A DNA stretch of 64,000 nucleotides from an uncultured Acidobacteriota bacterium. GTDB taxonomy: Bacteria > Acidobacteriota > Thermoanaerobaculia > Multivoradales > UBA5704. This document shows, piece after piece, positions 38,925 to 55,415 of the stretch. Numbering within the stretch: the stretch's first letter is position 1; the number at the start of each line of letters is the position of its first letter. The stretch lies in NCBI GenBank assembly GCA_963718645.1, contig OY970373.1, positions 5,802,452-5,866,451 of the forward strand. The letters are read 5' to 3'. The notes under the pieces are model-generated. The model saw nothing but the letters and a program-made list of their open reading frames with translations. It was not told the origin of the DNA and made no database searches. The position numbers and the translations under genes were made by a program.

Positions 38925-39125
38925 CATCTTTTGGAGGGGGAGGCTCGCCCTCTCAAACTTTTCCGAAAAAACCCGTAGGGGAGGCCTCCCCTCCCAAAGA
39001 TGCCCAAAAAAACTCGGAGGGGAAGCTTCCCCTTTCAAAAATTTGGAGAGAATCTCGGAGGGCGGGCCTCCCCTCTGAAACTCTTCGAGAAAATCTCGTG
39101 GGGGAGCTCCGCCCTGCCAGATTTT
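38925..39125. repeat. Five tandem ~40-bp units, each a GC palindrome (e.g. GAGGGGAAGCTTCCCCTT) followed by an A-rich spacer
   Basis: Read directly between the PBP1A start and the tRNA cluster. Confidence 0.75.
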
Positions 39126-39271
39126 GTCGGTGTCCAGCTTCAGCGACGGCTGGCGGGCTTCCCCTGCGCTTGGGGCAGCGACCTTCTGCGCTGTCTCGCT
39201 GCCCGTCGCGCTCGCCTCGATTTGACTCACCGGCCGGCCTCGCTTACACTGTGCCGCCTGCGCGTTTCCGT

Positions 39272-39345
39272 CGGGGCGTAGCGCAGCCTGGTAGCGCACC
39301 TGCCTTGGGCGCAGGGGGTCCCCAGTTCAAATCTGGGCGCCCCGA
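39272..39345 (+). tRNA. tRNA-Pro (TGG)
   Basis: CGGGGCG acceptor, anticodon loop CTTGGGC, TTCAAATCT T-loop. Confidence 0.85.
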
Positions 39346-39392
39346 TACCGACGGCGCTTTCAGGGGCCGGAACCGGACGCGCAAGACCACGG

Positions 39393-39469
39393 CTGCCTGT
39401 AGCTCAGTTGGATAGAGCGGCGGCCTTCTAAGCCGCGGGTCGGGGGTTCGAATCCCTCCAGGCAGGCCA
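39393..39469 (+). tRNA. tRNA-Arg (TCT)
   Basis: GTAGCTCAGTTGGATAGAGC D-arm, anticodon loop CTTCTAA, GGTTCGAATCC, encoded CCA. Confidence 0.85.
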
Positions 39470-39505: not shown

Positions 39506-39582
39506 GCGCCCTTAGCTCAGCTGGATAGAGCGGCAGCCTCCGAAGCTGTAGGTCAGAGGTTCGAATCCTCTAGGGCGCACCA
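39506..39582 (+). tRNA. tRNA-Arg (CCG); integration target of the downstream island
   Basis: GCGCCCT acceptor, anticodon loop CTCCGAA, GGTTCGAATCC, CCA. Its 3' 46 nt are repeated at 45794-45839. Confidence 0.9.
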
Positions 39583-39867
39583 TCTAAGCCCAATAAAATC
39601 AGATAGTTACGAGCGAGCCGCTGAAGTGGCTCCAGAGCCCCTTTTTGCTCGTGGACCACTGGTGGACCACTGGTGCGCTCGCTTGGGTCCACGCCGAGCC
39701 GGCCGGCTCACCCCTCCCTCGCGCCACTTCTCCCAGAAACACGACCGGCGCCAATGCGGCGCCGGGTTCAAACCTCCGTCTCCCTTCCTGGGAGCGGACC
39801 AAACCAGACGGCCCGGCGGGTGTGCGACCACGCCGCCGGACCTGACCCGAGCACAGGAGAACACCCC

Positions 39868-40191
39868 ATGCCCGAGCTGCCGGAAGTCTACCGCACGCCC
39901 CCGGACCTCATCCGCTACACGGAAGCCACCCGCCGCGACCTCTATGACCGGCTGGTAGCGATCCAATTCACCGCCCCGGACCCCGCGACCGTCGAGCATC
40001 CGGAGGACGTCTTCACCCCCTACGACCCGGATACGGCCGGGTTGGTCATCTTCCACGTCCTGGGGCGATGGTTTGCCACTTGGACCGACCTCGACGCCGC
40101 CCCCGAGCTGCCGGAGGATCGCCGCCGCGAGCTGGTACGCATCGAAGCCGATCCCACCACCTCAAACGGCATCATGCTCTATGAGGTCTGA
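39868..40191 (+). CDS. Hypothetical protein (island)
   Basis: ORF with internal ATG at 39868 (MPELPEVYRTPPDL...). No recognised domain. Confidence 0.4.
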   Translation: MPELPEVYRTPPDLIRYTEATRRDLYDRLVAIQFTAPDPATVEHPEDVFTPYDPDTAGLVIFHVLGRWFATWTDLDAAPELPEDRRRELVRIEADPTTSNGIMLYEV

Positions 40192-40194
40192 GCC

Positions 40195-40560
40195 ATGAGG
40201 GAACGGAAAGAGGCGGTCACCCTCAAGGCTACAACCTGGGAACTGGAGAGCTGGCGCGATGCCGCCCGCCGGGTCAAGCGGGACGTCCCCCGCTTCCTCA
40301 TCTTCGCGGGCGACGCCACGGCCCGCTACCTGCGGGAGTTGGACCGCCAGCGCCGGCCGGACTTCGTCATGATCCGGGAGACGGAGAAGCGGAAGCTTGG
40401 CGCCTTGCTCAAAGCGGCGCGGGAGGCCGTCGAGCACCTTCCCAAGGTCCACCACAGCCCGATCTACGGCCCCCGGCCAATCCAGCGAAACCTACGGGAC
40501 GCCGTGGAGGAAATCGACCGCTTCCTAATTGGACGCGGGGAGGAGTATCCGTGCGACTGA
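40195..40560 (+). CDS. Hypothetical protein (island)
   Basis: 121-aa ORF immediately after the previous one. No recognised domain. Confidence 0.4.
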   Translation: MRERKEAVTLKATTWELESWRDAARRVKRDVPRFLIFAGDATARYLRELDRQRRPDFVMIRETEKRKLGALLKAAREAVEHLPKVHHSPIYGPRPIQRNLRDAVEEIDRFLIGRGEEYPCD

Positions 40561-40725
40561 AGACGGCCCGCGCGAGTGCTCCAATGATCCCCACCCCTCC
40601 CGCGTAGTACCTCCGGGCCGGTTCCGACAGCGGGGCCGGCCCCCTCTTTCGACTCACAAGCAGGATCGGGGGGCGGTTCCTTTGTACGGGGCCGCCCCTT
40701 CTAGTTTTCCCAGGGAGAGCAAGCG

Positions 40726-40983
40726 GTGAACAGGAAAAGCGTAAAGGCATGGTGTGACGAAACCGAGCCGCCCGCCACGTGGAAGGGACTATCCACCGCG
40801 TACAGAGCGGGAGCGAAAGCGAGGGCGGCGGGTAAGGACAGAACCGAGTGCCGCTATGGGAGAGAGGATCTTGCTCGGGCTTGGCTAAGTGGGTTTGATG
40901 GAATGGACGGGTTTCTCTCCGGCGGTGGAATTCTGCTTTGCGATCTTTGCGGCCAAGAGCTTAAACCCACCCCTCCCGCTTAG
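40726..40983 (+). CDS. Hypothetical protein (island), flanked by ~50-bp direct repeats
   Basis: 85-aa ORF. Repeats ccacccctcccgc(g/t)tag(t/c)acct(c/t)ccgggccggttccgacagcggggccggcc at 40585-40640 and 40963-41020. Confidence 0.35.
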   Translation: MNRKSVKAWCDETEPPATWKGLSTAYRAGAKARAAGKDRTECRYGREDLARAWLSGFDGMDGFLSGGGILLCDLCGQELKPTPPA

Positions 40984-41281
40984 CACCTTCCGGGCCGGTT
41001 CCGACAGCGGGGCCGGCCTTCACTTTGGGGCCGGTTCAACCTTGCTTCCCTACAGCCGTCCCCCTGTTCAAAAAAATCTGAGTCTCCGTGCGCTCTCGCG
41101 AGATGCGATGCTACAATCCCATGGGGAATTCGGAAGCCTATGAGCGACTGTGAGCCCCGGTGCAATCCTGCCAACGCGGACACGGGAGCCGTACAGGCTT
41201 TGTATCTAAATGGATACTTGATCTAGCTTACGGAAGGAAAGGAGAAGATATGCCGAAGGAGAAGATATCCAACAATTTAAG

Positions 41282-42082
41282 TTGTCCTCGGAGAGAAGGG
41301 CTATTGTCGTGATAGCGGCGTACTTTGACGAAAGCGAGCGCGAGGATGGCACTTTTTGTGTCGCGGCTTACTGCTACTTCCCAGGGAAAGCAGAAAAGCT
41401 CGATAAACGGTGGCGTAAGATAATGGGTGGAAAAATTTTTCATGCTACCGATATGAATAATCGAGTAGGCGATTTTGAGGGCCTTGACCCGAGCATCAGT
41501 GACCAGATGTATCGCAAACTGATAGACGCTATCTTGAAGCACTTTGAATTTGGAGTTGTTCTTTCGCTTAACCCTCGTGACGTAACTGTAGAATGGCCAG
41601 GGCTTGACGGGTTCAAAACAGCTTATGCTCTTTGTTGTACTCTTGTTGTATCGACGATATCATCTCACCTTGACAGGTTGGGCATCAAATCTCGTGTGGC
41701 TTATATATTTGAGGCCGGACATAGACATCATAGTGAGGTGGAAAGATTCATGAATTCGGTGGCGCTCAGCTCTAATCGCTATCACTATCTCTCTCATTCT
41801 TTCGAGCCTAAAGACAGCGAGACACTATTACAGACCGCAGACCTTCTTGCCTGGGAGTGGGGTAAGTACATATCCGAAGTTAGTCAAAAAATGTCTATGA
41901 GACGGTCGTTGGAAGAGTTGTTATACAGAGATCCTCATAAGCAGATGGTGGGCAATCTCTCCACGAAAGATCTTGAAGAAGATATTGCAAAATTCAGAAC
42001 GATGGAGGAAATGGTGCGCAGTGCGCCGGATGCGTCTGCTTTCCTGAAGAAATTTAATCAGCGGCCAGCCCGGGAGCCCTAA
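41282..42082 (+). CDS. DUF3800-like protein (island cargo, AT-richer)
   Basis: N-terminal IAAYFDESERE (DUF3800 'DESG'-type motif) and C-terminal LQTADLLAWEW. Visibly lower GC than surroundings. Confidence 0.5.
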   Translation: MSSERRAIVVIAAYFDESEREDGTFCVAAYCYFPGKAEKLDKRWRKIMGGKIFHATDMNNRVGDFEGLDPSISDQMYRKLIDAILKHFEFGVVLSLNPRDVTVEWPGLDGFKTAYALCCTLVVSTISSHLDRLGIKSRVAYIFEAGHRHHSEVERFMNSVALSSNRYHYLSHSFEPKDSETLLQTADLLAWEWGKYISEVSQKMSMRRSLEELLYRDPHKQMVGNLSTKDLEEDIAKFRTMEEMVRSAPDASAFLKKFNQRPAREP

Positions 42083-42094
42083 AAGGCTGCCCCT

Positions 42095-42547
42095 CTAAGC
42101 GGTCAATAACTGGCCAACAGGACCCAACATCTCTAGTAGTATCTCCTCCTGGTCCGGTGTCAGTCTCTTGCCCGATCCCTCAAAGAGAATATATAGCTTC
42201 AGGGGGACAGAGAGGGAGTCTACCTCTATGTTATTGTCTTGAGTCTCAATAGGTCCGCCGTCCTTTCCAAATAACTCCACTGCTTTTGTTGGATGAAACC
42301 CTGTACGGTCTAAGACTATCTGAGATGCCTTCACTATAGAAGTTAGATCGTTGCTCTGAAGTGCCTTATGTAGTCCAGCCAATGCAGGCTCTACCAATTC
42401 GGCGAGACGTTCCTTTGCAGACTTCTTTACCTGTGGCGCTCTTCCACCGTGAGTCGCACAAACGGTAGAGCCGTTGATCGCCCACCGTTCGCACTGGCGG
42501 GAGCCGTCTGAGACGTGGGCTGTGCAGCGCTGTCTACGGGCTATCAT
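42095..42547 (-). CDS. Hypothetical protein with N-terminal Cys/His cluster (island cargo)
   Basis: RCTAHVSDGSRQCERWAINGSTVCATHGG zinc-finger-like N-terminus. 150 aa. AT-richer. Confidence 0.45.
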   Translation of the reverse strand: MIARRQRCTAHVSDGSRQCERWAINGSTVCATHGGRAPQVKKSAKERLAELVEPALAGLHKALQSNDLTSIVKASQIVLDRTGFHPTKAVELFGKDGGPIETQDNNIEVDSLSVPLKLYILFEGSGKRLTPDQEEILLEMLGPVGQLLTA

Positions 42548-42766
42548 GGGTCACGCCTTTCATGGGTGGCTGTTACCTCTGGACGGGCTGGACAGGTTGG
42601 CGTGCCGGGCACTCCTATTTATACTTATACTATTCTATTACTGGCCCACTATGTGAAGTCCGTGAAGTCTCCGGCTTCATCGTCCGGACTTCATGATGTC
42701 CCCCTTCTGAATTACGAGACTTCCCGCGTTAGACTTCATGAAGCGGCTTTGGTGAAGTGGAGAGCT

Positions 42767-43465
42767 TCACCCGACGTGCCGCCCCTGCTTCACGTCTCGG
42801 AGATGGGCTAATCCGGCTTTCCCCATACAGTGCCGGAAGCGCACCCTGCTTCTGAAGTGGTCCACGTACTCTCTGCACTCTATCCTGGTATTCTCTGCGA
42901 GGCAATCTTCATCCGCCCATGCGGCAAAACACGCTATAGTTGCCACCACCATGCGATCCTCGCCCAGAGTCTCAAGAACGGTAGTGAGTGACTTTCTCGG
43001 TTCCTCTCCGTAATAGAACGTGTGGTGCTTGAAACTGCCCAACCGCTTAAAGCCAAATTCCCTCAAGAAGTCTCCTAGATCCTTGTCCTCATCCGTCCCA
43101 AGATCGCCCAATTCCTGGAACTCACTTCTTAGTGCGGCATAGTCTTTAATCTCGGGCCAGTCGGCTACCTTCTTAATGCCGATGTCGAGAGAGCAGTGCC
43201 AAATGGCTTTTAAGGCTACTGCTCGCCCGTTTAGAGTAATCTCGGGCTTTATCTTTTCGACGATATGGTGTCCTAGAGGAGGCATGCACTTGATTGATAG
43301 ACTCTGCTCTCCTGAATTCCTGTCGAGCAGGAAGTTATAGTAATCTCTGTTTAGGGTCTCGACGATTCCCTTCTCGGCGTCTGGTTCATAATCCTCAAAA
43401 TCGACCGCAGATCCTTTGACGAATAGGGGGCGGGATTCTTGGCTTTCCCTCTGGGGTCTTGCCAT
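42767..43465 (-). CDS. Hypothetical protein (island cargo)
   Basis: ORF with probable start at MARPQRESQ. No recognised domain. Confidence 0.45.
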   Translation of the reverse strand: MARPQRESQESRPLFVKGSAVDFEDYEPDAEKGIVETLNRDYYNFLLDRNSGEQSLSIKCMPPLGHHIVEKIKPEITLNGRAVALKAIWHCSLDIGIKKVADWPEIKDYAALRSEFQELGDLGTDEDKDLGDFLREFGFKRLGSFKHHTFYYGEEPRKSLTTVLETLGEDRMVVATIACFAAWADEDCLAENTRIECREYVDHFRSRVRFRHCMGKAGLAHLRDVKQGRHVG

Positions 43466-43478
43466 TGTCGTTTCCTCT

Positions 43479-43712
43479 TCACTCAAGACACCCTTCACTC
43501 TCACGGTAATCTGGTCCACCACGGGGAGCCGCAGCGATGAACGCGGCGAGATCTTCCTCTTTCCAGCCACTCACACCAGGGCCGAGAATGACTCGGGGCG
43601 CCAGCCGGCCGGAGGACTCCCAGCGGTAAAGAGTCGCCCGGGAAATCCCCAGAAGACGGGCGGCTTTAGCGGGGCGAATGATCGGGGAGACGATCGGGGA
43701 TACAGACATCAT
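43479..43712 (-). CDS. AlpA-family phage transcriptional regulator / excisionase-like HTH protein
   Basis: LLGISRATLYRWESSGRLAP is the AlpA/Xis-type HTH. Confidence 0.7.
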   Translation of the reverse strand: MMSVSPIVSPIIRPAKAARLLGISRATLYRWESSGRLAPRVILGPGVSGWKEEDLAAFIAAAPRGGPDYRESEGCLE

Positions 43713-43826
43713 TTCGGTGCCTCCTTTGTTGCGCCGTGACACAGAGCGGAATGCGATGCTCTGCGATACCGCTCCATTGGACCACGCCGCCCTAGGGGCG
43801 CCGCAAGTTGAAAACTCTGAGAGTTT

Positions 43827-44366
43827 CTAACGTTTGACGGGGCGCGCCAGCTCGTACCAGATACTCGCGACGCGCTCGCTTGAGAGAGAGTATTCGTCCG
43901 CGACCTGATTAAAAACATCCAACATGGCAGGCTTTGGGTCACCTTCGATCAGCACAGCGACGCTTTCTGCAATGAACATGTCGCGGGAGTCAATGACGGC
44001 CTGCGCCGTGATTGAAGGGCCGCCGCCACTTCCTTTCAGGCCGAGAGCGGCGACAATCGCATTTCCCCCCTTCGGACGCTCTACGCACAGAGCCTTGGCC
44101 CATTGGTCGAACAGCTCAAGTACCCATCCGGGAATGTCGAGCTTCATACGGCGCGCTATGCGGTAGGCAGTAAACGCGTGGATTGGATTTCGGTTCCGCG
44201 CGTAGAGTACCCGAGAACGCTCTATGAAAAACTTCACTGACTTGGCCTTGGACCGTTGCCAAGCCTCCAATTGCCGCTGCCTTTCCGCGTCCAGTGGTTT
44301 GCTCTCTTCCATCATTGGCTCCGCGTGAACGTCACCTTTTCGCCCCGGCCGCGCCGAAGATTTCAT
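43827..44366 (-). CDS. Hypothetical phage/island protein
   Basis: 179-aa ORF whose start overlaps the integrase stop by 4 nt. No recognised domain. Confidence 0.4.
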   Translation of the reverse strand: MKSSARPGRKGDVHAEPMMEESKPLDAERQRQLEAWQRSKAKSVKFFIERSRVLYARNRNPIHAFTAYRIARRMKLDIPGWVLELFDQWAKALCVERPKGGNAIVAALGLKGSGGGPSITAQAVIDSRDMFIAESVAVLIEGDPKPAMLDVFNQVADEYSLSSERVASIWYELARPVKR

Positions 44367-45598
44367 CTCACCCGCTCCGCAATCCTCACCACGTTGGACC
44401 GCTCCTCCCCCGCGAGGACTCTTTCCACAAGATCCCCGAGCAAAATCACGGCTTGCCGTTTTTCCGCGTCATAGCCGGCGCGGTTGTAGGTGCGGGAGAT
44501 GCGGCCGGCGGCATGGTTCAAGAGCTGGTCTATGGTGTCAGGGCGGACCCCGGAGCGGCCGAGCCACGTTGCGGCCGTCCTCCGGAGGTCGTGCGGGGTG
44601 AAGTGGTCCAAGCCGGACCACGCCCGGAGCCGCGCCGAGCTGTGCGACAACCACGTGAGCCGCTTGCCGTCCGCGCGGGAGGCGAACACCCATTCCGTCG
44701 AGCCGGTGAGGGGGCGGAGAGCTTCAACCACCGCGAGAGCTTGCGGCGATAGCGGCACGCGGTGCGCGCGGTTGGTTTTCGTCAGCTCCGCCGGAAGGTT
44801 CCACCACCACCCCCGGGAGTCGCGCTCAAGGTCCCGCCAGCGCATAGAGAGCACCTCCCCGGGCCGCTGGGCGGTCAACAGGACCAGACGCCACGCGGCG
44901 GAGACGGCCGGCTGTAAGCGGTCGAAGAAGGGCCATAGGGCGCGGAGCTCATCCTCTGAGAGCACCCTTTCTCGCGGCTTCTCTGCATAGAGCCGCTTGA
45001 GGCCATGGACGGGATTGGTCTCGACGCGCTCTCTCTCCATTCCGAAGCTGAAAACCCGGGATATCAGGGTCCGGGTCCGATTGGCGCAGACGCCACCCCG
45101 ATCCAATGCGATCCTTTCGAGCAACTCGCGGACATCAGTCCGGCGGATCTCTGCGGCCGGCCGGGAGCCCCACACCGGGAGCACTTCAACCCGTAGTTTC
45201 CGCTCGTCTTCCTTCCAGGCGCGGAGCCGCTTGTTTCGCTTCGCGTGCTCTTCCAGGTAGAAGGCCGAGAGGGCTTCAAACGTCTCGCTTCCGGCTTTCT
45301 TGCGGGCGGCACGGTCGGCCTTCCGCTCGGCCATCGGGTCGCGGTCGTGGACCTTGACGCCTCCAAGGAGTTCCCGGGCCTTGTCCCGCGCCTTTTTCAG
45401 ACTGAGGGCCGGGTACTCGGCGAAGGTGATTCGACGCCGGCCGCCACTCGGGCCGTAGCGCAGAAACCAGAATTTGCGTCCACTCGGGAGGACACGGAGC
45501 CCGAGCCCGGGGACCTCGCCGTCCGCAAGCTCGAAGCGGGTCCCTTTGCTCGCGGTGCGGATCTGAAGATCGGAGAGGGGGGCAGTTGCACGCCTCAT
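44363..45598 (-). CDS. Tyrosine-type site-specific integrase (P4-like)
   Basis: N-terminal DUF4102-like arm-binding region (LSDLQIRTAKSKGTRFELADG...GLGLRVLPSGRKFWFLRY). Catalytic R...HxxR...Y (HDLRRTAATWL...LNHAAGRISRTYNRAGY). Start chosen at MRRATAPLS. Confidence 0.85.
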   Translation of the reverse strand: MRRATAPLSDLQIRTASKGTRFELADGEVPGLGLRVLPSGRKFWFLRYGPSGGRRRITFAEYPALSLKKARDKARELLGGVKVHDRDPMAERKADRAARKKAGSETFEALSAFYLEEHAKRNKRLRAWKEDERKLRVEVLPVWGSRPAAEIRRTDVRELLERIALDRGGVCANRTRTLISRVFSFGMERERVETNPVHGLKRLYAEKPRERVLSEDELRALWPFFDRLQPAVSAAWRLVLLTAQRPGEVLSMRWRDLERDSRGWWWNLPAELTKTNRAHRVPLSPQALAVVEALRPLTGSTEWVFASRADGKRLTWLSHSSARLRAWSGLDHFTPHDLRRTAATWLGRSGVRPDTIDQLLNHAAGRISRTYNRAGYDAEKRQAVILLGDLVERVLAGEERSNVVRIAERVR

Positions 45599-46289
45599 GG
45601 TCGGGTGCCTCCGGTTTGACGGGTGGACCTCAAGGCCCGCGCGGAATAGCCGTGGACCACTGGTGGACCACTGGTGGACGCGCTTGCATGGGTTGGCATG
45701 ATGCCGTATGATACAGGCGATGCCGCTAAATGTCCATGCTGTCAGTGACTTAGGGGGACGTGGCGAGACACCATGGAACCCCCCTGGCACAGACTCCGAA
45801 GCTGTAGGTCAGAGGTTCGAATCCTCTAGGGCGCACCATTTAAGTCACCTAAAATCAATGGTTTGCGGCGGGGGCTGACTCGGCTCCAGAGTGTCCTTGT
45901 GCAAAAGGACCCCTGGAGGACCGCTTCCGGCTGGCATCAGGATCCAACGGCTCCAGCGGGAGTGGTCACCCCCACTGGAGCCTGGTCGAGCCGAGGAGAG
46001 CTAGTTCAGCGGGCAGGTAGTAAGCCCGCCGGGGCACACCGTAGCGCTTCCCGCGCCTTCCACGGATCCCAATTCGTTCGCTTCGAGAAGACGGAGAGTT
46101 TCCTTGTTGAGCTTGAGCGACTCCCGGGTCTGGTGTTTGCCCTTCAGCAGGTTCTTTCTCATCGGCTTCTCCTTGTTGGTTAGCGCCCGCTGCGTTGAAG
46201 CGGGTCTAGGACCCGGACAAAATATATGACCAAGGGGTATGAGGCAAGCTCAGTTACAATGAAGACCCGTCCGGAAAGGGAGTGACTTT

Positions 46290-46589
46290 ATGCCCCGCTT
46301 GGCGATCGAAGAAGAGCAACTGGCGCGGTTCTGCCGGAAGCAGCACATCCGTCGGCTGTCCTTGTTCGGTTCCACGCTCGCGGGCACGGAACGGCCGGAC
46401 AGCGACGTCGATCTGCTGGTGGAGTTCGAGCCCGGCTGTGAGCCCGGCCTGCTCGGGTTGGCCTCGATGGAGGCCGAGCTGGCCGCGATGCTGGGCGGGA
46501 AAAGGGTCGACCTGCGCACCCCACAGGATCTCAGCCGGTATTTCCGCGATCAGGTCCTGGGTGGCGCAGAGGTCCAATATGCGGGATGA
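46290..46589 (+). CDS. Minimal nucleotidyltransferase (MntA-type antitoxin of HepT/MNT module)
   Basis: [24 protein letters not shown] is the GS...DxD NTase motif. Confidence 0.7.
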
Positions 46590-46920
46590 GGATCGCATCC
46601 GTATCCTCCACATGATCGATGCCGCCGAAATCGTGGCGCAGTTCATGGAGGGACGGAGCCGTGACGACCTCGATCGAGACCGTATGCTCCTCTTTGCCCT
46701 GGTGCATGCGATCGAAGTCCTCGGCGAGGCGGCGAGCAAAGTCTCAATCGACGGCCGGGCCGCCGCGCCGCAGATACCGTGGGGGACCATCGTCTCGATG
46801 CGCAACCGGCTTATCCATGGCTACTTCGACATCGACACGACGATTGTGTGGAAGACGGCCACTGTGGAAGTCCCCGCCTTGCTTCCCTTTCTGCGAACGC
46901 TGGCCGATGTGGCGACCTGA
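46579..46920 (+). CDS. HepT-like HEPN toxin (DUF86)
   Basis: Rx4HxY HEPN motif RNRLIHGY. Overlaps MNT gene by 11 nt. Confidence 0.7.
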
Positions 46921-47076: not shown

Positions 47077-47838
47077 ATGCCTAAAGTTTGGATCGGTTCC
47101 GCGTTCAAGATGCCGGAGCGGCTATATCGCTACAGACCCCTTGCAGACGAGAAGCACTGGGGTCACCTTGAGCAGATCTTGCTGGATTCCACAATGTATG
47201 GGGCGCCGCCTGGGGTTCTGCAGCAGGAAGATCCCGAAGACTGCCGCATTGCTGTGAATACCCGCTGCACGTTCGACGAGTTCAAGCAGAGCCGCTATGG
47301 TCAAGAGCCGACGCAGAAATACCTGGATTTGTCTGAGCCTGAAAGCGATTTCTACCTCCGCGAACATTACGAGGATCTAATGAAGCCAGATTTCGCTCCT
47401 GCCGTGGTTGATTCGCTTCGGCGAAGCATAGACCAGTACGGCGTGATCTGTTTCTCCGTAGATGGAGACATCCCAACACAATGGCAGAGCTATGCCTCCC
47501 AAGGGCGAGGAGTGTGTCTGGAGTTCGACCCGCTCAAGGACTCGGACTTCTTCATAAAGGTCAAGCCTGTCGACTATGTCGATGTGCTCGAACCGGCACA
47601 TGTCTTTACTGACACGAGTGAAGCGCAGGTCCGCAAGCGTCTGTATACCAAACTCGTCAAATATGAGAGTGAGGCGGAGTTTCGTGCCCTCTTCGTTGGT
47701 GGAGCTGATCAACAGATACCCTTCAGGCCCGAGGCGCTGATAAGGGTCAAGCCGGGCTCGGAGATGGATGAGGCGAATCGCGGCCGCTTCGAAGCGATCC
47801 TCCGGAAGCGGTGGGCGAAGACAGGGCTTGAAGTCTAG
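47077..47838 (+). CDS. DUF2971 family protein
   Basis: N-terminal LYRYRPL...W and EDPED motifs typical of DUF2971. Sits in an AT-richer stretch. Confidence 0.5.
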   Translation: MPKVWIGSAFKMPERLYRYRPLADEKHWGHLEQILLDSTMYGAPPGVLQQEDPEDCRIAVNTRCTFDEFKQSRYGQEPTQKYLDLSEPESDFYLREHYEDLMKPDFAPAVVDSLRRSIDQYGVICFSVDGDIPTQWQSYASQGRGVCLEFDPLKDSDFFIKVKPVDYVDVLEPAHVFTDTSEAQVRKRLYTKLVKYESEAEFRALFVGGADQQIPFRPEALIRVKPGSEMDEANRGRFEAILRKRWAKTGLEV

Positions 47839-48418: not shown

Positions 48419-49762
48419 ATGCTTGCCCAGATCCCTGCCCGGCTTGAACGGCTGCCTATTACATGGATGCATTACAGGCTACTCCTGGTGCATGGCTTCG
48501 GTTGGCTCTTCGATGCGATGGACGTGGGTATTATCACCTTCGTACTGGCGCCTCTGGCAAAGGACTGGAAATTGGCACCAACCGAAGTTGGACTAATTGG
48601 CAGTGCCAGTCTTGCAGGAATGTTTGTAGGTGCCCTCGTCTCAGGCATACTGGCGGACCGTTGGGGGCGCAAGACCGTGTTCCAAATTACTCTGCTAGTG
48701 TTCGCTCTTGGTACCGCGCTGTGTGCCGTAGCTTGGAATGTGGGCGCGATGTTGGTCTTTAGATTCATTGCCGGCCTGGGATTGGGTGGCGAGCTGCCAG
48801 TGGTTTCGTCCCTGATGGTGGAATTCATTCCTAGCGCCCATCGGGGCCGTTTCATTGTCGTGCTCGAAAGCTTTTGGGCCTATGGATGGTTTCTTGCTGC
48901 GCTGATCGCGTTTCTGCTCATCCCTAGCCATGGATGGAGGCTCGCCTTCCTGGTAGGCGCAGTTCCCGCGGTGTTTGTTTGGGTCATTCGGCAGAAGCTA
49001 CCGGAGTCGCCGAGGTGGCTTGAGAGTAAGGGACGAGTTGAGGAAGCGGGAGCAATCGTTTCAGCGATGGAGCTTGAGACAGAGCGAAGGATTCATAGGC
49101 GCCTAGCTCCGATGACTGAAACGAGCGAGTTGAAGACCGAATCCCTCCGAAGTGCCAGCTTCGCCGATCTCTGGAAGCCAGCGTATCTTCAAAGAACGGT
49201 TATGCTTTGGATTCTGTGGTTCTGTCTAGTTTTCGGGTACTACGGGATTTTCATCTGGTTGCCGTCTTTGCTAGTGAAAGCCGGCTATTCGATGGTAAAC
49301 TCGTTCCTGTACGTTATGTTGATAACTCTTGCGCAGATCCCGGGCTATTTCAGCGCCGCCGTCTTGGTAGACCGCCTGGGCCGTAGGCCGGTCATTTCAG
49401 CGTATCTTGCAATGTCGGCGACATGTGCATTTCTCTTCGGCCAAGCGACAACAACACCTGGCATCCTGCTTTGGGCATCGCTAATGTCATTTTTCAACCT
49501 GGGAGCGTGGGGAGGCGTGTATACTTACACACCCGAACTCTATCCAACACATGTAAGAGCGACTGGAGCTGGGTCTGCGGCAGCATTTGGGCGCTTTGGA
49601 GGAGTGCTTGCACCGCTGACCGTAGGTTGGCTTTTGCCCCACATCGGGCAAGGGGGCGTTTTGAGCCTGAATGCATTAATGCTGCTGCTGGCTGCAACTT
49701 CTATCGCCGTTCTTGGAAAAGAGACACGGGGCAAAACCCTTGAGGAAATCGCGCATGATTAA
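48419..49762 (+). CDS. MFS transporter
   Basis: 12 TM. GRKTVF / RWGRK MFS loop motifs. Confidence 0.8.
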   Translation: MLAQIPARLERLPITWMHYRLLLVHGFGWLFDAMDVGIITFVLAPLAKDWKLAPTEVGLIGSASLAGMFVGALVSGILADRWGRKTVFQITLLVFALGTALCAVAWNVGAMLVFRFIAGLGLGGELPVVSSLMVEFIPSAHRGRFIVVLESFWAYGWFLAALIAFLLIPSHGWRLAFLVGAVPAVFVWVIRQKLPESPRWLESKGRVEEAGAIVSAMELETERRIHRRLAPMTETSELKTESLRSASFADLWKPAYLQRTVMLWILWFCLVFGYYGIFIWLPSLLVKAGYSMVNSFLYVMLITLAQIPGYFSAAVLVDRLGRRPVISAYLAMSATCAFLFGQATTTPGILLWASLMSFFNLGAWGGVYTYTPELYPTHVRATGAGSAAAFGRFGGVLAPLTVGWLLPHIGQGGVLSLNALMLLLAATSIAVLGKETRGKTLEEIAHD

Positions 49763-49811
49763 GGCCGACCCAGAGGAGAAACAGGCTGCTTCCCCCGAGC
49801 GACAGGGATTC

Positions 49812-51002
49812 ATGAGCAAGTTGAGGAAGCACGCCGACATTCACATCCACATTCCATTAATAGGTGTAAGCGTACATGTGAAAACATGGCCAGCGTTGTG
49901 TGTGGTTCTGGTGCTAGTGCTTTCTACAATTTTGATTCCGACTTACCTTCAGTATTCTGCCAAGCATGTCTCAAAACTCCCGGCGGTGGCTGTCTTCTTG
50001 CCAGACTGGACACGTCCATTGGACCATCCTTTCTATCAGGATGGCTTTGTCCAGAAACGTGGCTTTGACCAAGCACAAAGAGAATGTGAAGGAAACGGTG
50101 CTCCTCGCGTCGAATATGTCCAGATGAAACTGGAGGCGACTCCGGGAGAGCTTCTGACGGAGATGAAATCTCATTATTCCGAAGGAGCAGTTTTTTTTGT
50201 GATGACAATGAGCTCAAAGATCAAGCCCCTTCTGCCAGGTTTTAGGGCTTGGCGGAACGAGGTCCTTAAGGAAGGAGGCCGGCCGCCAGTACTCGTTGCC
50301 ACGGTCGCAAGCGCTCCAGACCTCGCAGATGCCAATAACGGTGTGGTGAGATGGTACATTAGGTCTGAGGAAGAGAGCGAACTCGTTGCGGAATTTCTTC
50401 GCTGGAGGCGTGCCGTTGGACACGCCGCAGTTTTTTACATCACACGGACGCCAGGCGTGTCAGACGACTCTTACGGGCAGCGTGGGATGGAGGTATTTCG
50501 TGAGCGGTTCCTTGCGCTTGGTGGTGAGGTTGAGACGCACGGTGTGACTGCGGATACTGCCGCTGACGAAGTCAAGAACTTTGTTAAAAATGGACCTCAG
50601 CCTGCGGCCGCCGGCGTATTCGTTGTCGGGTACGGGAAGATGGTCAGTGCTACGCTAAATGCTCTGATAGCTGCAGGTTTTTCTGGTTCCATCGCGTCTA
50701 CTTCCACTCTTACTGAACGCGATTGGCAGCCAACAGATCAAGGCGCTGACGATCGAATTTTTACTGTGTTACCGCGCCTTGAAAAGGCCTCGCTAGAGGG
50801 CGATGACCGCAACGTGGTATTCTATTTTGCCAGGATTACCCTTAGACGAGTACTGCAAATGACGGTGACCGATAGGGACCCAGCGAAATTCGTCACGCGG
50901 TGGACTTCCGGCCAAGACGCTTCTCAGCTAAGTGAAGAATATCTCGCCAATGGAGACACGCTTGTGCGTGTCGAGGTCGTTGGGAAGGAGCGTTGGCGGT
51001 GA
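49812..51002 (+). CDS. Periplasmic-binding-protein-like protein (type I PBP fold, LivK-like), membrane anchored
   Basis: N-terminal TM then ~370-aa domain with alternating beta-alpha pattern of ligand-binding receptor family proteins. Start uncertain (49755 or 49812). Confidence 0.45.
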   Translation: MSKLRKHADIHIHIPLIGVSVHVKTWPALCVVLVLVLSTILIPTYLQYSAKHVSKLPAVAVFLPDWTRPLDHPFYQDGFVQKRGFDQAQRECEGNGAPRVEYVQMKLEATPGELLTEMKSHYSEGAVFFVMTMSSKIKPLLPGFRAWRNEVLKEGGRPPVLVATVASAPDLADANNGVVRWYIRSEEESELVAEFLRWRRAVGHAAVFYITRTPGVSDDSYGQRGMEVFRERFLALGGEVETHGVTADTAADEVKNFVKNGPQPAAAGVFVVGYGKMVSATLNALIAAGFSGSIASTSTLTERDWQPTDQGADDRIFTVLPRLEKASLEGDDRNVVFYFARITLRRVLQMTVTDRDPAKFVTRWTSGQDASQLSEEYLANGDTLVRVEVVGKERWR

Positions 51003-51562
51003 CAGAGGCCGTGATAGTCGTCGATGTACAAAGAGACTTCTGTAAAGGCGGAACTCTTGAGGCGACCGACACGCTCTCGCTGTTGGAGCCTCTGAAATCA
51101 TACATTGTGAAGGCTCGCAAGAGAGACTGTACGATTGTGTTTACGCAGGACTGGCATCCGGTGGATCACAGATCATTCGAAGCGAATGGGGGACCATGGC
51201 CAGTGCATTGCGTTGCCGGTACACTTGGGGCAGAACTGATGCCAGCACTTGAAGCGCGGGAAGATGACATAGTTGTACGTAAGGGAACGGATCGTAATGC
51301 GCCGGGCTATTCTGCGTTCGAAGCTCCAGAATTGGTGAGAGAGCTTCGTAGAAGAGGCGTCAAATCTCTCGCGGTTTGTGGAATTGCGACTGAGTACTGC
51401 GTTCGTGCGACCGCGTTGGACGGTGCTAAGGCAGGATTCGGCGTTGTTGTTTTAGTGGACTTAGTGCGGCCAGTGGCACCTCGCGCAGGTTACGAAGCTC
51501 TTCATGAGTTGGCTCAGGCGGGAATAGCCTTGAAGCGATCTGATGAGCGCGCGTCGGCCTAG
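50993..51562 (+). CDS. pncA: Nicotinamidase/pyrazinamidase (isochorismatase family)
   Basis: VDVQRDFCKGGTL, QDWHP, catalytic Cys in AVCGIATEYCV. Classic PncA motifs. Confidence 0.8.
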   Translation: MAVTEAVIVVDVQRDFCKGGTLEATDTLSLLEPLKSYIVKARKRDCTIVFTQDWHPVDHRSFEANGGPWPVHCVAGTLGAELMPALEAREDDIVVRKGTDRNAPGYSAFEAPELVRELRRRGVKSLAVCGIATEYCVRATALDGAKAGFGVVVLVDLVRPVAPRAGYEALHELAQAGIALKRSDERASA

Positions 51563-51705
51563 ATTGAGATGATCTTTTGCGCCGTTGGGATTTAGTTTAT
51601 AGATATTTTTGAACGGCGACAACACAAAGAAGGCGAAGAAGGACAACCGTGCTTCAGAAATTTCCGCTTTTGATCTGAATGTCACTCTCGATCGAGGTCA
51701 TAGAT

Positions 51706-52107
51706 ATGCGAGAGCCAGCATTACATGCAACGGCTTCTGCGAAGCTGGTGGTTCGCAACGACGATTTGGCCAGCGCTTTGCAAATGGAGCCGAGTGATGA
51801 ATTCCCGGCCGTGTTCGCCACATCACGCATGATAGCCTTGATGGAGGTTGCAGCTGCCCGCCTACTCCGCTCTTACCTAGAGCTGGGTGAGTTATCAGTC
51901 GGCGTTTCCGTTGACGTTGTACATTCCTTGCCCACACCACCTGGGCATACCGTTACGGCTACGGCCGAGTTTTTAGGGCGTGAAGGAAAGTTTCTTGCCT
52001 TTGGTGTTGTTGCCTACGACGAGGCGGGTGAGATTGGACGAGGAACTCACAGGCGAGCTATCGTTTCATATTCCAGGCTACTTGCGGGTGCCGCGAGACG
52101 ATTCTAA
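51706..52107 (+). CDS. Hotdog-fold thioesterase (FlK-like)
   Basis: FATSRMIALMEVAAARLL...TVTATAEFLGREGKFLAFGVVAYDEAGEIGRGTHRRAIV resembles the fluoroacetyl-CoA-thioesterase-like hotdog family. Confidence 0.6.
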   Translation: MREPALHATASAKLVVRNDDLASALQMEPSDEFPAVFATSRMIALMEVAAARLLRSYLELGELSVGVSVDVVHSLPTPPGHTVTATAEFLGREGKFLAFGVVAYDEAGEIGRGTHRRAIVSYSRLLAGAARRF

Positions 52108-52672
52108 GGTGCAGATCAGGGCTGATGACATAAAATGAAGCAACTGCACATTGAATCGAAGTAGATCCGAAGCCGAAGACAACTAAACAGCCAGGCAGAG
52201 TAGACGACTGATGGCTCCTGTGTTCGAGGCGCTCATCTCATGTAGAGAGCTACCAGTTCTAGCGGCGACTCATCGACAACAAGGTTTCAGTGAGATCGGG
52301 AGCGGGCCTCCACCCTTTGAGGCGCTCCAAGCGCTCTTCCTAGGAGTGAATGACAGCCTTGGTGAGGCTCTCGCCGGTCTCGGCAGACACCTGCCGAGCG
52401 AGCTTCTCCGCCATGTCGTTCTTGATCCTGATAGCCATAGAGAGGATCTCCTGCGTCTAGAAACTCCAATGAATCCTAGATTTTTCCGGCCCGGGTGGCA
52501 AACCGGGCAAGGGTGGGTCCTACCGATACTTCCTCATCTTCCGGTACCCTCGGCCTCCAGCGGTGCCGAGGCTGCGACCACTACCCCGGTGAGGTAACGG
52601 GTGATGACTCCTTGGAGGCCATGCGCTCGCAACCCTCTTCTCTCAAGGCGCCGACGATGGCATCGAACCCGC

Positions 52673-53014
52673 TCAGGCTGCCTGAAGCACAAAGTTGACG
52701 CGGACCGCCTCAAACGGGAACACGATCCGGCCTTCGTCCGTCTTCCGCAGGATCCCAACGTCGAGCAACGCATGAGCATCTCCATGCACAGCCTTGACGT
52801 CTCGGCCGACCCTGCGAGCCAGCTCGCGCAAGGTCAAAGGGCCTGCGCCCGCCATCACCGACAGCAGCTCCCAGCGTTTCTGCGTCAGCACTTTGAACAG
52901 CAGCGCCGGCGTCTCGAAGCTGATGAGCTCGCCTTGGGGCTCCCCCTCGAACGCTTGCAGGAAACGGTGATTGGCCTCCTCGCGGGATGAGACTTCCAGG
53001 GTCACTGCATGCAT
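52673..53014 (-). CDS. wHTH DNA-binding protein (putative TA antitoxin/transcriptional regulator)
   Basis: Start at MHAVTLEV. C-terminal LLSVMAGAGPLTLRELARRVGRDVKAVHGDAHALLDVGIL winged-helix. Confidence 0.5.
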   Translation of the reverse strand: MHAVTLEVSSREEANHRFLQAFEGEPQGELISFETPALLFKVLTQKRWELLSVMAGAGPLTLRELARRVGRDVKAVHGDAHALLDVGILRKTDEGRIVFPFEAVRVNFVLQAA

Positions 53015-53203
53015 TTCAGGATCTCCAGTGGTCCACGTCGTTCCAGAAATCGGCAAGCAATCGCGCCGGCGTAGTGAAAACGTAAGGAGATTCCTCCTCA
53101 CCGACGTGCTTGTGATCCCCCTTGCCCGCCTCATTGTCGTAGCGCAGAACGCACACGCCATATAAATCATACTTGCTGCTTCATCAATCCAGAAGTGGCA
53201 CGT

Positions 53204-53302
53204 TATGTGTAGGGGCGGCCCTATGTGGCCGCCCTGGGAGGGGGAGATTCTCGACCGGACCGGCCTCCCACCCAGGGCGGCCACATAGGGCCGCCCCTAC
53301 AA
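53204..53302. repeat. Near-perfect 33-bp inverted repeat (GTAGGGGCGGCCCTATGTGGCCGCCCTGGGAGG ... CCTCCCACCCAGGGCGGCCACATAGGGCCGCCCCTAC) with a 25-bp spacer
   Basis: Read directly. Arms are reverse complements except for a 3-nt insertion. Confidence 0.85.
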
Positions 53303-53702
53303 AATCCCACATTTCTAGGATGACGGTGAACTTAGGTCGCAGCAGCGGAGCTTGGGGGCGCAGGTTCGCCCACCTATGTCTGAGAGGCTCAGGACTCCGG
53401 AGTCCTCGCCGCCCAAGCCGATCGGGGTAGAGTTCCACTCGCAGAGGCTCGCTCCGAGTCCTGCCTACAAAAGGGAGAGAAGGCATCATGAAGAAAAAGC
53501 CCGGGCCGCTCAGCTTGAACCGCGAGACCGTGCGCTGCCTTTCGTCGGCCACACTGTGGGGAATCGCCGGCGCAGCCGCCGAGACCGGCTCCAACCCTCA
53601 CAGTGTGTGCGTCACCTGTTCCTGTGTGGGTTGCATCACCCCACCGGCATAGTTCGAGGGTTTCGGCTCAAGCGGCGATCAGGGCGAGGTCCTGCCCCGC
53701 TA

Positions 53703-54278
53703 CTACCGATACCGCTTCATCTTCCGATACCCCTCGGCCTCCAGGGGCGCCGAATCACCGACCATTTCGACCTCGGTGAGGTAGCGGGTGATGAAGCCCT
53801 GGAGGCTCATGCGTTCGATCTGCGCGACGTGGACCATCTCGTGGGCGAGGATCGAGCGATCCTTCTGGTACTTCGGCTTGAGGAAGATGACGGTGCCCAT
53901 CGTCCGTCCCCCTTCGTTGCGGCTGCCGAGGCCGTAGGAGGTCAGGAGAGCGCGCAGCGCCGGGTCGTCGGGGAGAGGGAACGCCTTCGCCACGACGACC
54001 CGGATCCGTTCCGGCTCCTTGACGCCGATCTCGGTCGCCATCTGGACCTCCGGTGGAGTCAGGGAGCGGCCGGCGGTCTCGAAGTCCTTCTCGACGCTCT
54101 CGATCCAGGCGACGGTCGGCGGGCTGAACCGCGCGACTTTCTGGACGACTTGCGGCGGTGGATCGTCCAGCGCCGCCAACTGCTGCGTGGTCAGGGGCGG
54201 CCGGGCCGCGCAACCGGCGGCGAGGAGCAGGAGCAGGACGATCCGCCCGCGGCGAACGTTTATCGGCGACCTCATGGC
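53703..54278 (-). CDS. Lipoprotein with HExxH zinc-metallopeptidase motif
   Basis: Start MRSPINV..., lipobox LLAAGCA, ILAHEMVHVAQ. Its last ~125 bp are duplicated at 52500-52625. Confidence 0.55.
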   Translation of the reverse strand, partial: AMRSPINVRRGRIVLLLLLAAGCAARPPLTTQQLAALDDPPPQVVQKVARFSPPTVAWIESVEKDFETAGRSLTPPEVQMATEIGVKEPERIRVVVAKAFPLPDDPALRALLTSYGLGSRNEGGRTMGTVIFLKPKYQKDRSILAHEMVHVAQIERMSLQGFITRYLTEVEMVGDSAPLEAEGYRKMKRYR

Positions 54279-54392
54279 GGCGATTCTATGTCTCCGCGGC
54301 GGCCCGTGTCCCCTGTCGGCCTGTAAATGCGTGCTCTCGGATGCGATGCGAGGCGGCATGACGCCCCTCGCTGATCAGAAGGAGAGGACGAC

Positions 54393-55415
54393 ATGGTTAC
54401 TTTCGCGCAAAAGACCACGATCGCAGCCGTCGCGAGACCCGGGGAACAGATCGACATTTTCGGGGTCGAGACCGACGGCGGTGTGTACACGGCAGCGAGG
54501 CGAAAGGCGGCTTGGCACAATTGGGGGCGCATCGGCATCGGTGAGTTTGCCCAGAACACCGCCGTCGCCGCGGTGAGCAAGGACCCCAGCCAGATCGATG
54601 TCTTCGCGGTGGGGAAGGATGGCGGAGTCTATACGGCCTGGTGGAATTCGAAGGAAGGCTGGGATGGCTGGGGTCGGGTTTCGGCCGGCGAATTTACGCA
54701 GCACACTCCGATTGCCGCGGTGAGCAAGAGCCCGGGCCAGATCGATCTCTTCGGGGTCGGGAAGGATGGCGGAGCCTACACCGCCTGGTGGAATCCGGGG
54801 GACGGCTGGGGCGGCTGGGAACGAGTTTCCTCCGGACTATTTCTGCAGCAGACTCCGATTGCCGCGGTGAGCAAGAGATCCGGCCAGATCGACCTCTTCG
54901 CGGTCGGGGAGGATGGCGGAGTCTACACCGCCTGGTGGAACGCGAACGAGGGCTGGGGCGGTTGGAGCCGTGTCGGCAATCGCCTCTTCCCGCAGTGGAC
55001 CCCCATCGCCGCGGTTTCCAAGAACCTCGGCGAGATCCACCTCTTTGCCGTGGGCGAAGATGGTGGAGCGTACATGGCGTGGTGGAACGAGGTTGAGGGC
55101 TGGAACGACTGGAGCCGGGTTGCCATCGGCAGCTTCACGCCGAACACTCCGATCACCGCTTTGAGCAAGAACCCCGGCCAGATCGACCTCTTCGCCGTGG
55201 GTCTGGGTGGCGGTGTGTGGACCGCTTGGTGGAATACCGACGATGGCTGGGATGGCTGGAACGAAGTCAGCAAAAGCCTTTTCGCGCAGCACACCCCGAT
55301 CACCGCGGCAAGCAGGGGCTCGGACGAGATCAACCTGTTCGGCGTCGGCGGCGATGGCCACGTTTATACCGCTGTACGGGATGGAAACTGGAGCCCCTGG
55401 GCCCTCGTTCCATAA
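54393..55415 (+). CDS. Seven-repeat beta-propeller protein (PLL/tectonin-like Trp-rich lectin-type repeats)
   Basis: Seven ~47-aa repeats of consensus TPIAAVSKxPGQIDLFAVGxDGGVYTAWWNxxxGWxGWxRV. Confidence 0.6.
   Translation: MVTFAQKTTIAAVARPGEQIDIFGVETDGGVYTAARRKAAWHNWGRIGIGEFAQNTAVAAVSKDPSQIDVFAVGKDGGVYTAWWNSKEGWDGWGRVSAGEFTQHTPIAAVSKSPGQIDLFGVGKDGGAYTAWWNPGDGWGGWERVSSGLFLQQTPIAAVSKRSGQIDLFAVGEDGGVYTAWWNANEGWGGWSRVGNRLFPQWTPIAAVSKNLGEIHLFAVGEDGGAYMAWWNEVEGWNDWSRVAIGSFTPNTPITALSKNPGQIDLFAVGLGGGVWTAWWNTDDGWDGWNEVSKSLFAQHTPITAASRGSDEINLFGVGGDGHVYTAVRDGNWSPWALVP

Follow-up and report, generated by a model that had tools for sequence, protein, structure and literature searches.

A compact tRNA-Arg(CCG) integrative island of an uncultured Acidobacteriota bacterium as a candidate minimalist phage satellite

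The integration site and the recombination module

We analysed a 64-kb stretch of DNA from an uncultured Acidobacteriota bacterium (contig OY970373.1; this whole stretch is called the window, and coordinates are positions in it) and found that a 6.3-kb island fills the interval between two att repeats at a tRNA-Arg(CCG) gene, the last of a Pro(TGG)/Arg(TCT)/Arg(CCG) cluster. Site-specific integration into tRNA-Arg is well supported. The 46-bp repeat comprises the last 45 nt of tRNA-Arg(CCG) plus one base, reaching from the anticodon loop to the base that follows the CCA-end. Both the tRNA (by ARAGORN and Rfam) and the exact repeat, as claimed in an initial annotation, were confirmed, and the further ~20 degenerate bp described there were recovered as a match that, with flanks, extends to 68 nt at 91% identity. 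A 25-nt att core occurs only twice in the 64-kb window, and matches were found in 0 of 100 shuffles. The 3′ part of the present tRNA-Arg(CCG) is supplied by the island, and the displaced tRNA copy is left at attR. The site and the recombination module comprise the following features.

39271-39346, plus strand: tRNA-Pro-TGG (ARAGORN; Rfam agrees)
39393-39469, plus strand: tRNA-Arg-TCT (ARAGORN; Rfam agrees)
39506-39582, plus strand: tRNA-Arg(CCG), the integration target (ARAGORN; Rfam tRNA 70.9 bits)
39538-39583, plus strand: attL core, left copy of the 46-bp exact direct repeat
39584-39700, plus strand: P′ arm, with an AAAATCA motif, a hairpin plus T-run and tandem arm-type sites; conserved in 19 islands
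39654-39662 and 39665-39673: predicted tandem arm-type sites of the P′ arm, GACCACTGG, ~70 nt inside attL
43479-43742, minus strand: AlpA/HTH_17 excisionase-type regulator (Pfam, PHROG)
43827-44366, minus strand: all-helical protein of 179 amino acids (aa), its ATG overlapping the integrase stop codon (ATGA)
44363-45598, minus strand: P4-type tyrosine integrase, 411 aa, starting MRRATAPL (Pfam, PHROG)
45599-45793, minus strand: P arm, with tandem arm-type sites and a promoter-like site
45655-45663 and 45666-45674: predicted tandem arm-type sites of the P arm, GACCACTGG, ~120 nt inside attR
45736-45708, minus strand: promoter-like site upstream of int
45794-45839, plus strand: attR core, right copy of the 46-bp exact direct repeat

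The integrase does adjoin attR, as had been proposed: int starts at 45598, ~195 nt from the repeat, and its product carries the three Pfam domains Arm-DNA-bind_3 (DUF4102; 2e-18), Phage_int_M (6e-9) and Phage_integrase (8e-24) in the P4-type order. The protein also matched phrog_1 (1e-67), and the catalytic R-K-HxxR-H-Y residues are all visible in the translation (AQRPGE, TKTNRAHRVPL, HDLRRT, LNHA and RTYNR). Against the NCBIfam model PRK09692 it scored 118 bits, below the cutoff of 434; judged by these matches, the integrase is a distant member of the P4-type architecture and not of the PRK09692 model itself. The AlpA-like gene, likewise reported earlier, scored 29.9 bits against HTH_17 (cutoff 27) and a borderline 21.0 bits against Phage_AlpA (cutoff 21), matched phrog_66 at 1.6e-9, and is kept in 22 loci. 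The 179-aa protein has 149 representative homologues, some family members giving weak helix-turn-helix (HTH) matches; its AlphaFold2 model (predicted local distance difference test score, pLDDT, 91) had no fold match in the PDB. It is probably a DNA-binding regulator.

Both att arms show the layout GACCACTGG-n2-GACCACTGG in the same orientation, and this layout is conserved in both arms across the family of related islands. In two relatives whose integrases are 63-65% identical to that of the window (L023 and L024; L-numbers denote individual relative loci, L003-L033 being 31 integrase-bearing ones) the arm tandem is GGGCGAAT x2, a replacement seen in both arms of L023 and, for L024, in the P arm, which alone was compared. 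Because they co-vary with the integrase type, we read the GACCACTGG tandems as predicted arm-type integrase-binding sites, as would be expected of att arms. The hairpin and T-run of the P′ arm probably terminate the tRNA transcript.

The core of the island had been described as AT-richer than the host. Indeed, GC content is 0.44-0.54 over 41.0-43.6 kb, compared with ~0.70 in the host; the low GC, however, does not end at attR, persisting (0.52-0.62) to ~54 kb.

A family of islands with exchangeable genes

Integrase relatives at 78-95% identity were found in about two dozen loci, all from soil metagenome-assembled genomes of Thermoanaerobaculia/Acidobacteriota, complete chromosomes included. 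Eighteen complete related islands, of 4.4-8.4 kb and with integrases 78-94% identical to that of the window (63% in L023), are each bounded by an exact repeat of 40-58 nt. The repeat begins in the anticodon loop of a tRNA-Arg whose anticodon is ACG, TCG or CCG, the last of these standing in the Pro/Arg/Arg cluster also seen in the window. At the DNA level conservation is limited to three segments: attR with int, alpA, and ~300 nt between the tRNA end and the first gene, orfA. The common backbone consists of the integrase, alpA, the tandem arm-type sites on both arms and a 150-nt leader with three hairpins. By comparison of the islands, the genes between these parts are exchanged slot by slot: orfA is shared with L026 (86% identity) and L022 (64%), orfB with L018 and L011, an Rmf-like gene with L003 and L015, a 150-aa gene with L026, L015 and L004, and the 179-aa gene with L022 and L005. 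A DUF3800 gene and a 232-aa orphan are absent from all those genome loci and present in metagenome islands. The same gene string as in the island is carried by a Logan assembly of a separate run. On a metagenome contig (L048, 3273-10113) a tRNA-Arg(CCG) site holds a 6.8-kb island whose integrase is only 34% identical to that of the window; competition for this site thus involves at least two integrase lineages.

Between the recombination arms the window's island contains the following.

39731-39881, plus strand: conserved leader with three hairpins (H1 39745-39765; H2 ~39775-39800; H3 ~39809-39845), ending in AGGAG and the ATG of the first open reading frame (ORF)
39862-40191, plus strand: orfA, 109 aa, first gene after the leader; GC content at third codon positions (GC3) 0.85
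40195-40560, plus strand: orfB, 121 aa; GC3 0.85
40590-40649, plus strand: terminator-like ~60-nt repeat, copy 1
40726-40983, plus strand: small protein of 85 aa with a borderline match to the Rmf/CrpP fold
40966-41037, plus strand: terminator-like repeat, copy 2
41282-42082, plus strand: DUF3800 protein, low-GC cargo; annotated start 41309 (257 aa)
42095-42547, minus strand: small-terminase homologue by profile comparison, 150 aa, with a Cys/His 'HGG' N-terminal domain
42767-43465, minus strand: orphan of 232 aa in the slot after alpA; start equal to that of deposited protein P0001

The slot after alpA and the one beyond it bear most directly on the nature of the island. ORFs were called in all islands, and representatives (~40 ORFs of relatives) were scanned against Pfam. 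In relatives, the post-alpA slot encodes DnaB_N+AAA_25, AAA_25, Zn_ribbon_DnaG+AAA_25, DUF3631 or DUF3987 proteins, domains typical of replication (helicase/primase) proteins; one of them joins a primase-type CHC2 zinc finger to AAA_25. The window has the 232-aa orphan there, which matched nothing in Pfam, PHROG, NCBIfam, PADLOC or PDB profiles. Its 10 homologues are 72-83% identical, and in the three metagenome contigs examined for context they lie directly downstream of an alpA/HTH_17 gene; a weak hhalign link (probability 15%) connects the orphan to the post-alpA protein of L011.

In the next slot, L020 and L005 encode Terminase_2 proteins (8e-24 and 9e-12), L023 an HTH_Tnp_1_2 protein, and the window, L004, L015 and L026 the 150-aa 'HGG' protein. 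A profile built from 52 members of the 150-aa family matched the solved small terminases 7joq_I (9e-6) and 6w7t_I (1.3e-5) over profile positions 47-113, with the motif KAAQxILDRxGF..QxIELT in common; by this profile comparison the 150-aa protein is a homologue of small terminases. The L023 protein joins its HTH_Tnp_1_2 N-terminus to the C-terminal motif found in the 150-aa protein. The latter also matched phrog_3678 (6e-10), and its N-terminus scored 19 bits, below the cutoff, against NCBIfam HGG_STG. On the metagenome contigs that were inspected, members of the family come after an AAA_25 gene, which in turn lies downstream of alpA on those contigs long enough to include it. The N-terminal half is homologous to Microbacterium phage proteins; the phage homologue lies 1.7 kb upstream of the large terminase in phage SM23 but not in phage Megan, which makes this weak evidence.

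The left (plus-strand) and right (minus-strand) gene sets converge on the low-GC centre. Central cargo consisting of a single gene was found in several islands: DUF3800 in the window and L020, SIR2_2 in L022 and L035, DUF2971 in L023 and PIN_12 in L034. The DUF3800 gene of the window scored 21.8 bits against Pfam (cutoff 21), retains the DE (FDESE) and QxxD (QTAD) motifs, and has 21 homologues, several of them with PF12686. DUF3800 is an RNase H2-like effector of type VII retrons, with an N-terminal DE and a C-terminal QxxD motif (PMC7736814), and has been associated with enigmatic non-coding RNAs (PMC5737381). A DUF3800-associated RNA motif of the latter kind was considered and rejected: Rfam gave none upstream of the gene, and the upstream region was not conserved at the locus of an 87%-identical homologue.

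The GC3 of orfA and orfB is host-like. No Pfam or PDB match was found for orfA, and no significant family match for orfB. The Rmf-like protein scored just below the cutoffs of Pfam RMF (26.5 bits vs 27.9) and NCBIfam Rmf_CrpP_fam (27.7 vs 28). The cargo had been described as mostly ORFans, which holds for Pfam only, since every tested cargo gene has homologues in metagenomes or related islands. On either side of the Rmf/CrpP-like gene stand the two terminator-like copies, which are 86-92% identical; the pair looks like the footprint of a cassette exchange by recombination between terminators.

The leader ahead of orfA and orfB is likely a regulatory switch. In an alignment of 19 islands (RNAalifold) 93.5% of cells were paired, compared with 34-49% in slid controls, and seven pairs showed compensatory change, compared with 2.2 in shuffles, of which 0 of 500 reached as high a count; this covariation is supportive rather than conclusive, the sequences being related. 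Rfam holds no counterpart. A covariance model of the leader gave a single match in the window (39731-39881, 137 bits) and matches of 46-145 bits in loci outside its training set, namely L035, L042, L039:6279-6429 (beside tRNA-Thr), L040:10008-10157 and L048:4681-4803. It lies directly downstream of the integrase in L040 and in L048. Since the leader is found both beside the 34%-identical integrase of L048 and beside tRNA-Thr, the leader-orfA module is portable between island families; from this distribution, the leader travels with the orfA module and is not merely part of attP or of one integrase family. Its pairing and G-U counts are equally compatible with either RNA strand. A T-run comes after H1 on the minus strand, where the hairpin can be read as a terminator, and a TAnAnT hexamer on that strand (39884-39879) is conserved whatever the reading frame of orfA. 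From the hexamer and this reading of H1 we infer that an antisense RNA of ~140 nt, predicted to run from 39872 to 39735, might cover the orfA ribosome-binding site.

Outside the island, to the right of attR, the following features were found.

45840-45938, plus strand: P′-arm stub left by an older, related element; its arm sites are degenerate (GGACCCCTGGAGGACCGCT)
46290-46920: MNT/HepT (NTP_transf_2 plus HepT-like) toxin-antitoxin pair, beyond the stub
47077-47838: PDC-S31-like candidate defence gene, 253 aa, beyond the stub

In comparisons with P′ arms of other islands, the stub showed 87% identity for L026 and 85% for L022, and comparable stubs stand right of attR in seven other loci (L007, L008, L018, L015, L025, L024 and L048). 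Neither a third att core nor a second integrase was found in the window. The stub marks the present island as the latest member of a tandem accretion; by this arrangement, the older element had rebuilt the tRNA, and it was pushed aside when the present island inserted into that rebuilt copy. The MNT/HepT pair and the PDC-S31-like gene may be surviving cargo of the decayed element. Searching for an empty site, we found the left flank (PBP1A) to be syntenic in six loci and the right flank to match in none, and recovered no clean empty site; we thus regard this locus as a hotspot at which elements have repeatedly integrated and decayed. In other species the same tRNA site holds different islands, and L033 keeps an integrase remnant only.

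Further right, a lower-GC block (48419-54400; 0.52-0.62) encodes a major facilitator superfamily (MFS) transporter, a 429-aa protein of unknown family, an isochorismatase, an FlK-type thioesterase and an HVO_A0114-family HTH protein, and gave a weak eCIS_core-domain match below the cutoff. It had no BLAST match in the 31 integrase-bearing loci L003-L033. At 54393-55415 a 340-aa protein contains about seven very regular ~47-aa repeats (..IDLFAVGxDGGVYTAWWN..GW..W..), beside the extracytoplasmic function (ECF) sigma factor and Ser/Thr kinase gene that resume at ~55.4 kb. Just upstream of the tRNA cluster (38937-39100) stand four tandem copies, 66-100% identical, of a 41-nt unit (GGGGAGGC..CCCTC..AAA..), each holding a short GC palindrome; these could be promoter-upstream elements or elements like repetitive extragenic palindromes (REP).

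A possible satellite life cycle and its alternatives

On balance we favour the view that the island is a minimalist phage satellite, of the kind of PICIs (chromosomal islands inducible by phages), VEIMEs (integrative mobile elements encapsidated in virions) and PICMIs (minimalist chromosomal islands inducible by phages), and belongs to a tRNA-Arg family spread across Thermoanaerobaculia; dependence on a phage is something that we infer. Our confidence in its integrative mobility is much higher than in the satellite mechanism. This reading follows from the integrase and alpA, the replication gene of relatives, the small terminase, the size of 4-8 kb, the defence-like cargo and the lack of structural genes. 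In the island, searches of Pfam, PHROG and NCBIfam gave no capsid, tail, portal, large terminase, lysis or conjugation gene; DNA similarity to known phages was limited to tRNA matches, and a 267-aa ORF had no phage match. The earlier suggestion that it is satellite-like or a defence island, and not a prophage, is supported by the small-terminase homologue, by the absence of structural and lysis genes and by the DUF3800 gene in the low-GC centre, as well as by the primase/helicase and Terminase_2 genes of relatives at matching positions.

The P4-type integrase recombined the 46-bp core with the tRNA gene, and the island copy rebuilt the tRNA. In the life cycle that we propose, AlpA would trigger excision or activate the element, as suggested by PICMI and PICI biology (PMC10803314). 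The excised circle would then replicate, probably through the 232-aa orphan after alpA, and the small-terminase homologue would direct the large terminase of a helper phage to package concatemers of the island into full-size capsids, as described for VEIMEs (PMC9618062) and PICMIs (PMC10803314). The DUF3800 gene, which is low in GC and belongs to an RNase H-like family, would be accessory cargo, plausibly anti-phage, and the three-hairpin leader ahead of orfA/orfB would serve as a regulatory switch.

Several observations weigh against this scheme. Excision, replication and encapsidation are predicted from gene content, and no helper phage was identified. The window's island has no recognisable replication gene, a gene of the pri-rep type being seen in relatives only. 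The N-terminal domain of the 150-aa protein is the Cys/His 'HGG' domain and not the HTH usual in small terminases; in a fold search with its AlphaFold model (pLDDT 79.6), all significant hits were to uncharacterised phage proteins, the terminase matches having E values of 0.3-1. Scans of IMG/VR with the arm-site pattern and with the integrase (at >43% identity) recovered no member of the family, and no close relative of the terminase-like protein turned up among its viral contigs. Inside the island PADLOC found no known defence system: its sole match there was of AlpA to mad1, a generic HTH match, and the PDC-S09 and PDC-S31 matches lie outside, right of attR. A scan of metagenomes for the attP-type junction P-core-P′ gave no circle, and among the metagenome matches no circular contig has a terminal overlap. 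The sole P-core-P′ match, L048, turned out to be an island with a different integrase beside a stub of this family, so not attP.

The island might instead move without phage particles, in vesicles, by transformation or by conjugative mobilisation at an unrecognised origin of transfer (oriT), as a cargo shuttle resembling tycheposons or integrative mobilisable elements (IMEs), its terminase-like gene encoding an ordinary DNA-binding protein. The integrase, alpA and exact repeats demonstrate no more than site-specific mobility, no counterpart of the family was found in viral contigs, its cargo turns over as in tycheposons, and the hairpin region, pairing equally well on both strands, could be an oriT-like or single-stranded DNA structure. 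We nevertheless consider such movement unlikely. Neither the island nor the ~40 relatives' ORFs scanned against Pfam contain a relaxase, coupling protein or conjugation gene, whereas bona fide Terminase_2 genes occupy the matching slot in relatives and the profile of the window's own family matches solved small terminases; a packaging subunit serves no purpose apart from phage packaging. Somewhat less probable still is a now-immobile defence or accessory island, kept for its cargo (DUF3800, Rmf-like) while the backbone decays. The site does gather decaying elements, as seen from the P′ stub followed by the MNT/HepT pair and the PDC-S31-like gene, L033 retains just an integrase fragment, and the window's post-alpA gene is not a known replicase. 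Against this, the two 46-bp repeats do not differ, the integrase ORF is complete and keeps the catalytic residues, and alpA and the sites of both arms are intact. In other species, moreover, islands with different cargo carry integrases 93-94% identical to this one, which speaks for recent activity.

Descent from a degraded prophage would account for the integrase, the excisionase-type gene, the terminase-like gene and the phage-related protein, but more than 18 relatives have a like compact layout of 4.4-8.4 kb with exact repeats, which would not be expected from independent decay, and neither a capsid, tail, portal, large terminase or lysis gene nor a fragment of one was found; we regard this origin as very improbable. 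Duplication of the tRNA 3′ end during assembly has nothing in its favour beyond the general possibility, and its probability is negligible, given that the repeat-bounded structure recurs in independent assemblies of many species, complete chromosomes among them, and that the Logan assembly of a separate run has the same gene string.

Significance and relation to known mobile elements

There is ample documentation of phage satellites in Proteobacteria, Firmicutes and marine plankton; Acidobacteriota are a dominant, poorly cultivated soil phylum. Our literature search found no published account of phage satellites in Acidobacteriota, and the island family, the unusual terminase-like protein and the conserved leader appear to be undescribed. 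We suggest, tentatively and with more doubt than attaches to the satellite reading itself, that the islands could form an undescribed minimalist satellite lineage native to soil Acidobacteriota, combining a small terminase whose DNA-binding domain would be of the Cys/His 'HGG' type and not the usual HTH, a portable leader (possibly a sense/antisense pair) that even islands with unrelated integrases share, and a 232-aa replication initiator of a new type. If they are satellites, they give gene flow and single-gene anti-phage cargo (DUF3800, SIR2_2, DUF2971, PIN_12) in soil a defined vehicle that is easy to recognise, and they offer a compact ~6-kb system for asking what a satellite minimally needs; the leader and the slot-wise swapping would give handles on regulation, in the form of the arm sites, the covariance model and the family of terminase-like proteins. 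Otherwise, the island is a tidy but ordinary case of tRNA-targeted island turnover. In kind, the biology is as expected.

Among known elements, PICIs, including the Staphylococcus aureus pathogenicity islands (SaPIs) studied by Penades and co-workers, are ~10-18 kb long and usually carry the capsid-size and packaging-interference genes cpm, ppi and rpp. In PICIs, as in our family, the genes run int - alpA - replication gene - small terminase, and in both a helper's structural genes would be needed and packaging redirected by the satellite's small terminase. Unlike PICIs, the island measures just 6.3 kb, and Pfam and PHROG searches of it gave no homologues of cpm, ppi or rpp. Tycheposons (Hackl et al.) reportedly combine a tyrosine recombinase with a tRNA target, modular cargo, tandem arrays and decaying remnants, in Prochlorococcus and mainly with metabolic cargo. 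The recombinase and tRNA target, the modular cargo, the tandem arrays and the remnants at the same site are all seen in our family as well; its backbone, by contrast, includes alpA and a small-terminase gene.

The island is about half the size of P4, and its host belongs to a different phylum (PMC8628076); homologues of psu, delta, sid, alpha and epsilon were not detected in it (Pfam, PHROGs). With P4-like satellites it nevertheless shares an Arm-DNA-bind_3 integrase, tRNA sites, an AlpA-type regulator and a hotspot for defence cargo (PMC8628076). PICMIs, as described by Barcia-Cruz et al. 2024, lie next to fis in Vibrionaceae, and the abstract names only three core proteins, required for excision and replication (PMC10803314). 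The family described here is found in tRNA-Arg and has a small-terminase gene, and its member in the window lacks a recognisable primase; what it has in common with PICMIs is the minimalist content, the core of Int, AlpA and replication, the defence cargo and the lack of capsid-remodelling genes (PMC10803314). VEIMEs (Eppley et al. 2022) range from <5 to 16.8 kb and were sequenced as concatemers from marine virions, whereas our island matches them in gene content and size only (PMC9618062). It differs from them, too, in its soil Acidobacteriota host, strict use of tRNA-Arg, hairpin leader and terminase-like protein with a Cys/His N-terminus. Like VEIMEs, however, the islands are small, encode a tyrosine integrase, AlpA, primase/helicase and small-terminase homologues, have no capsid genes, and carry variable accessory or abortive-infection-like cargo (PMC9618062).

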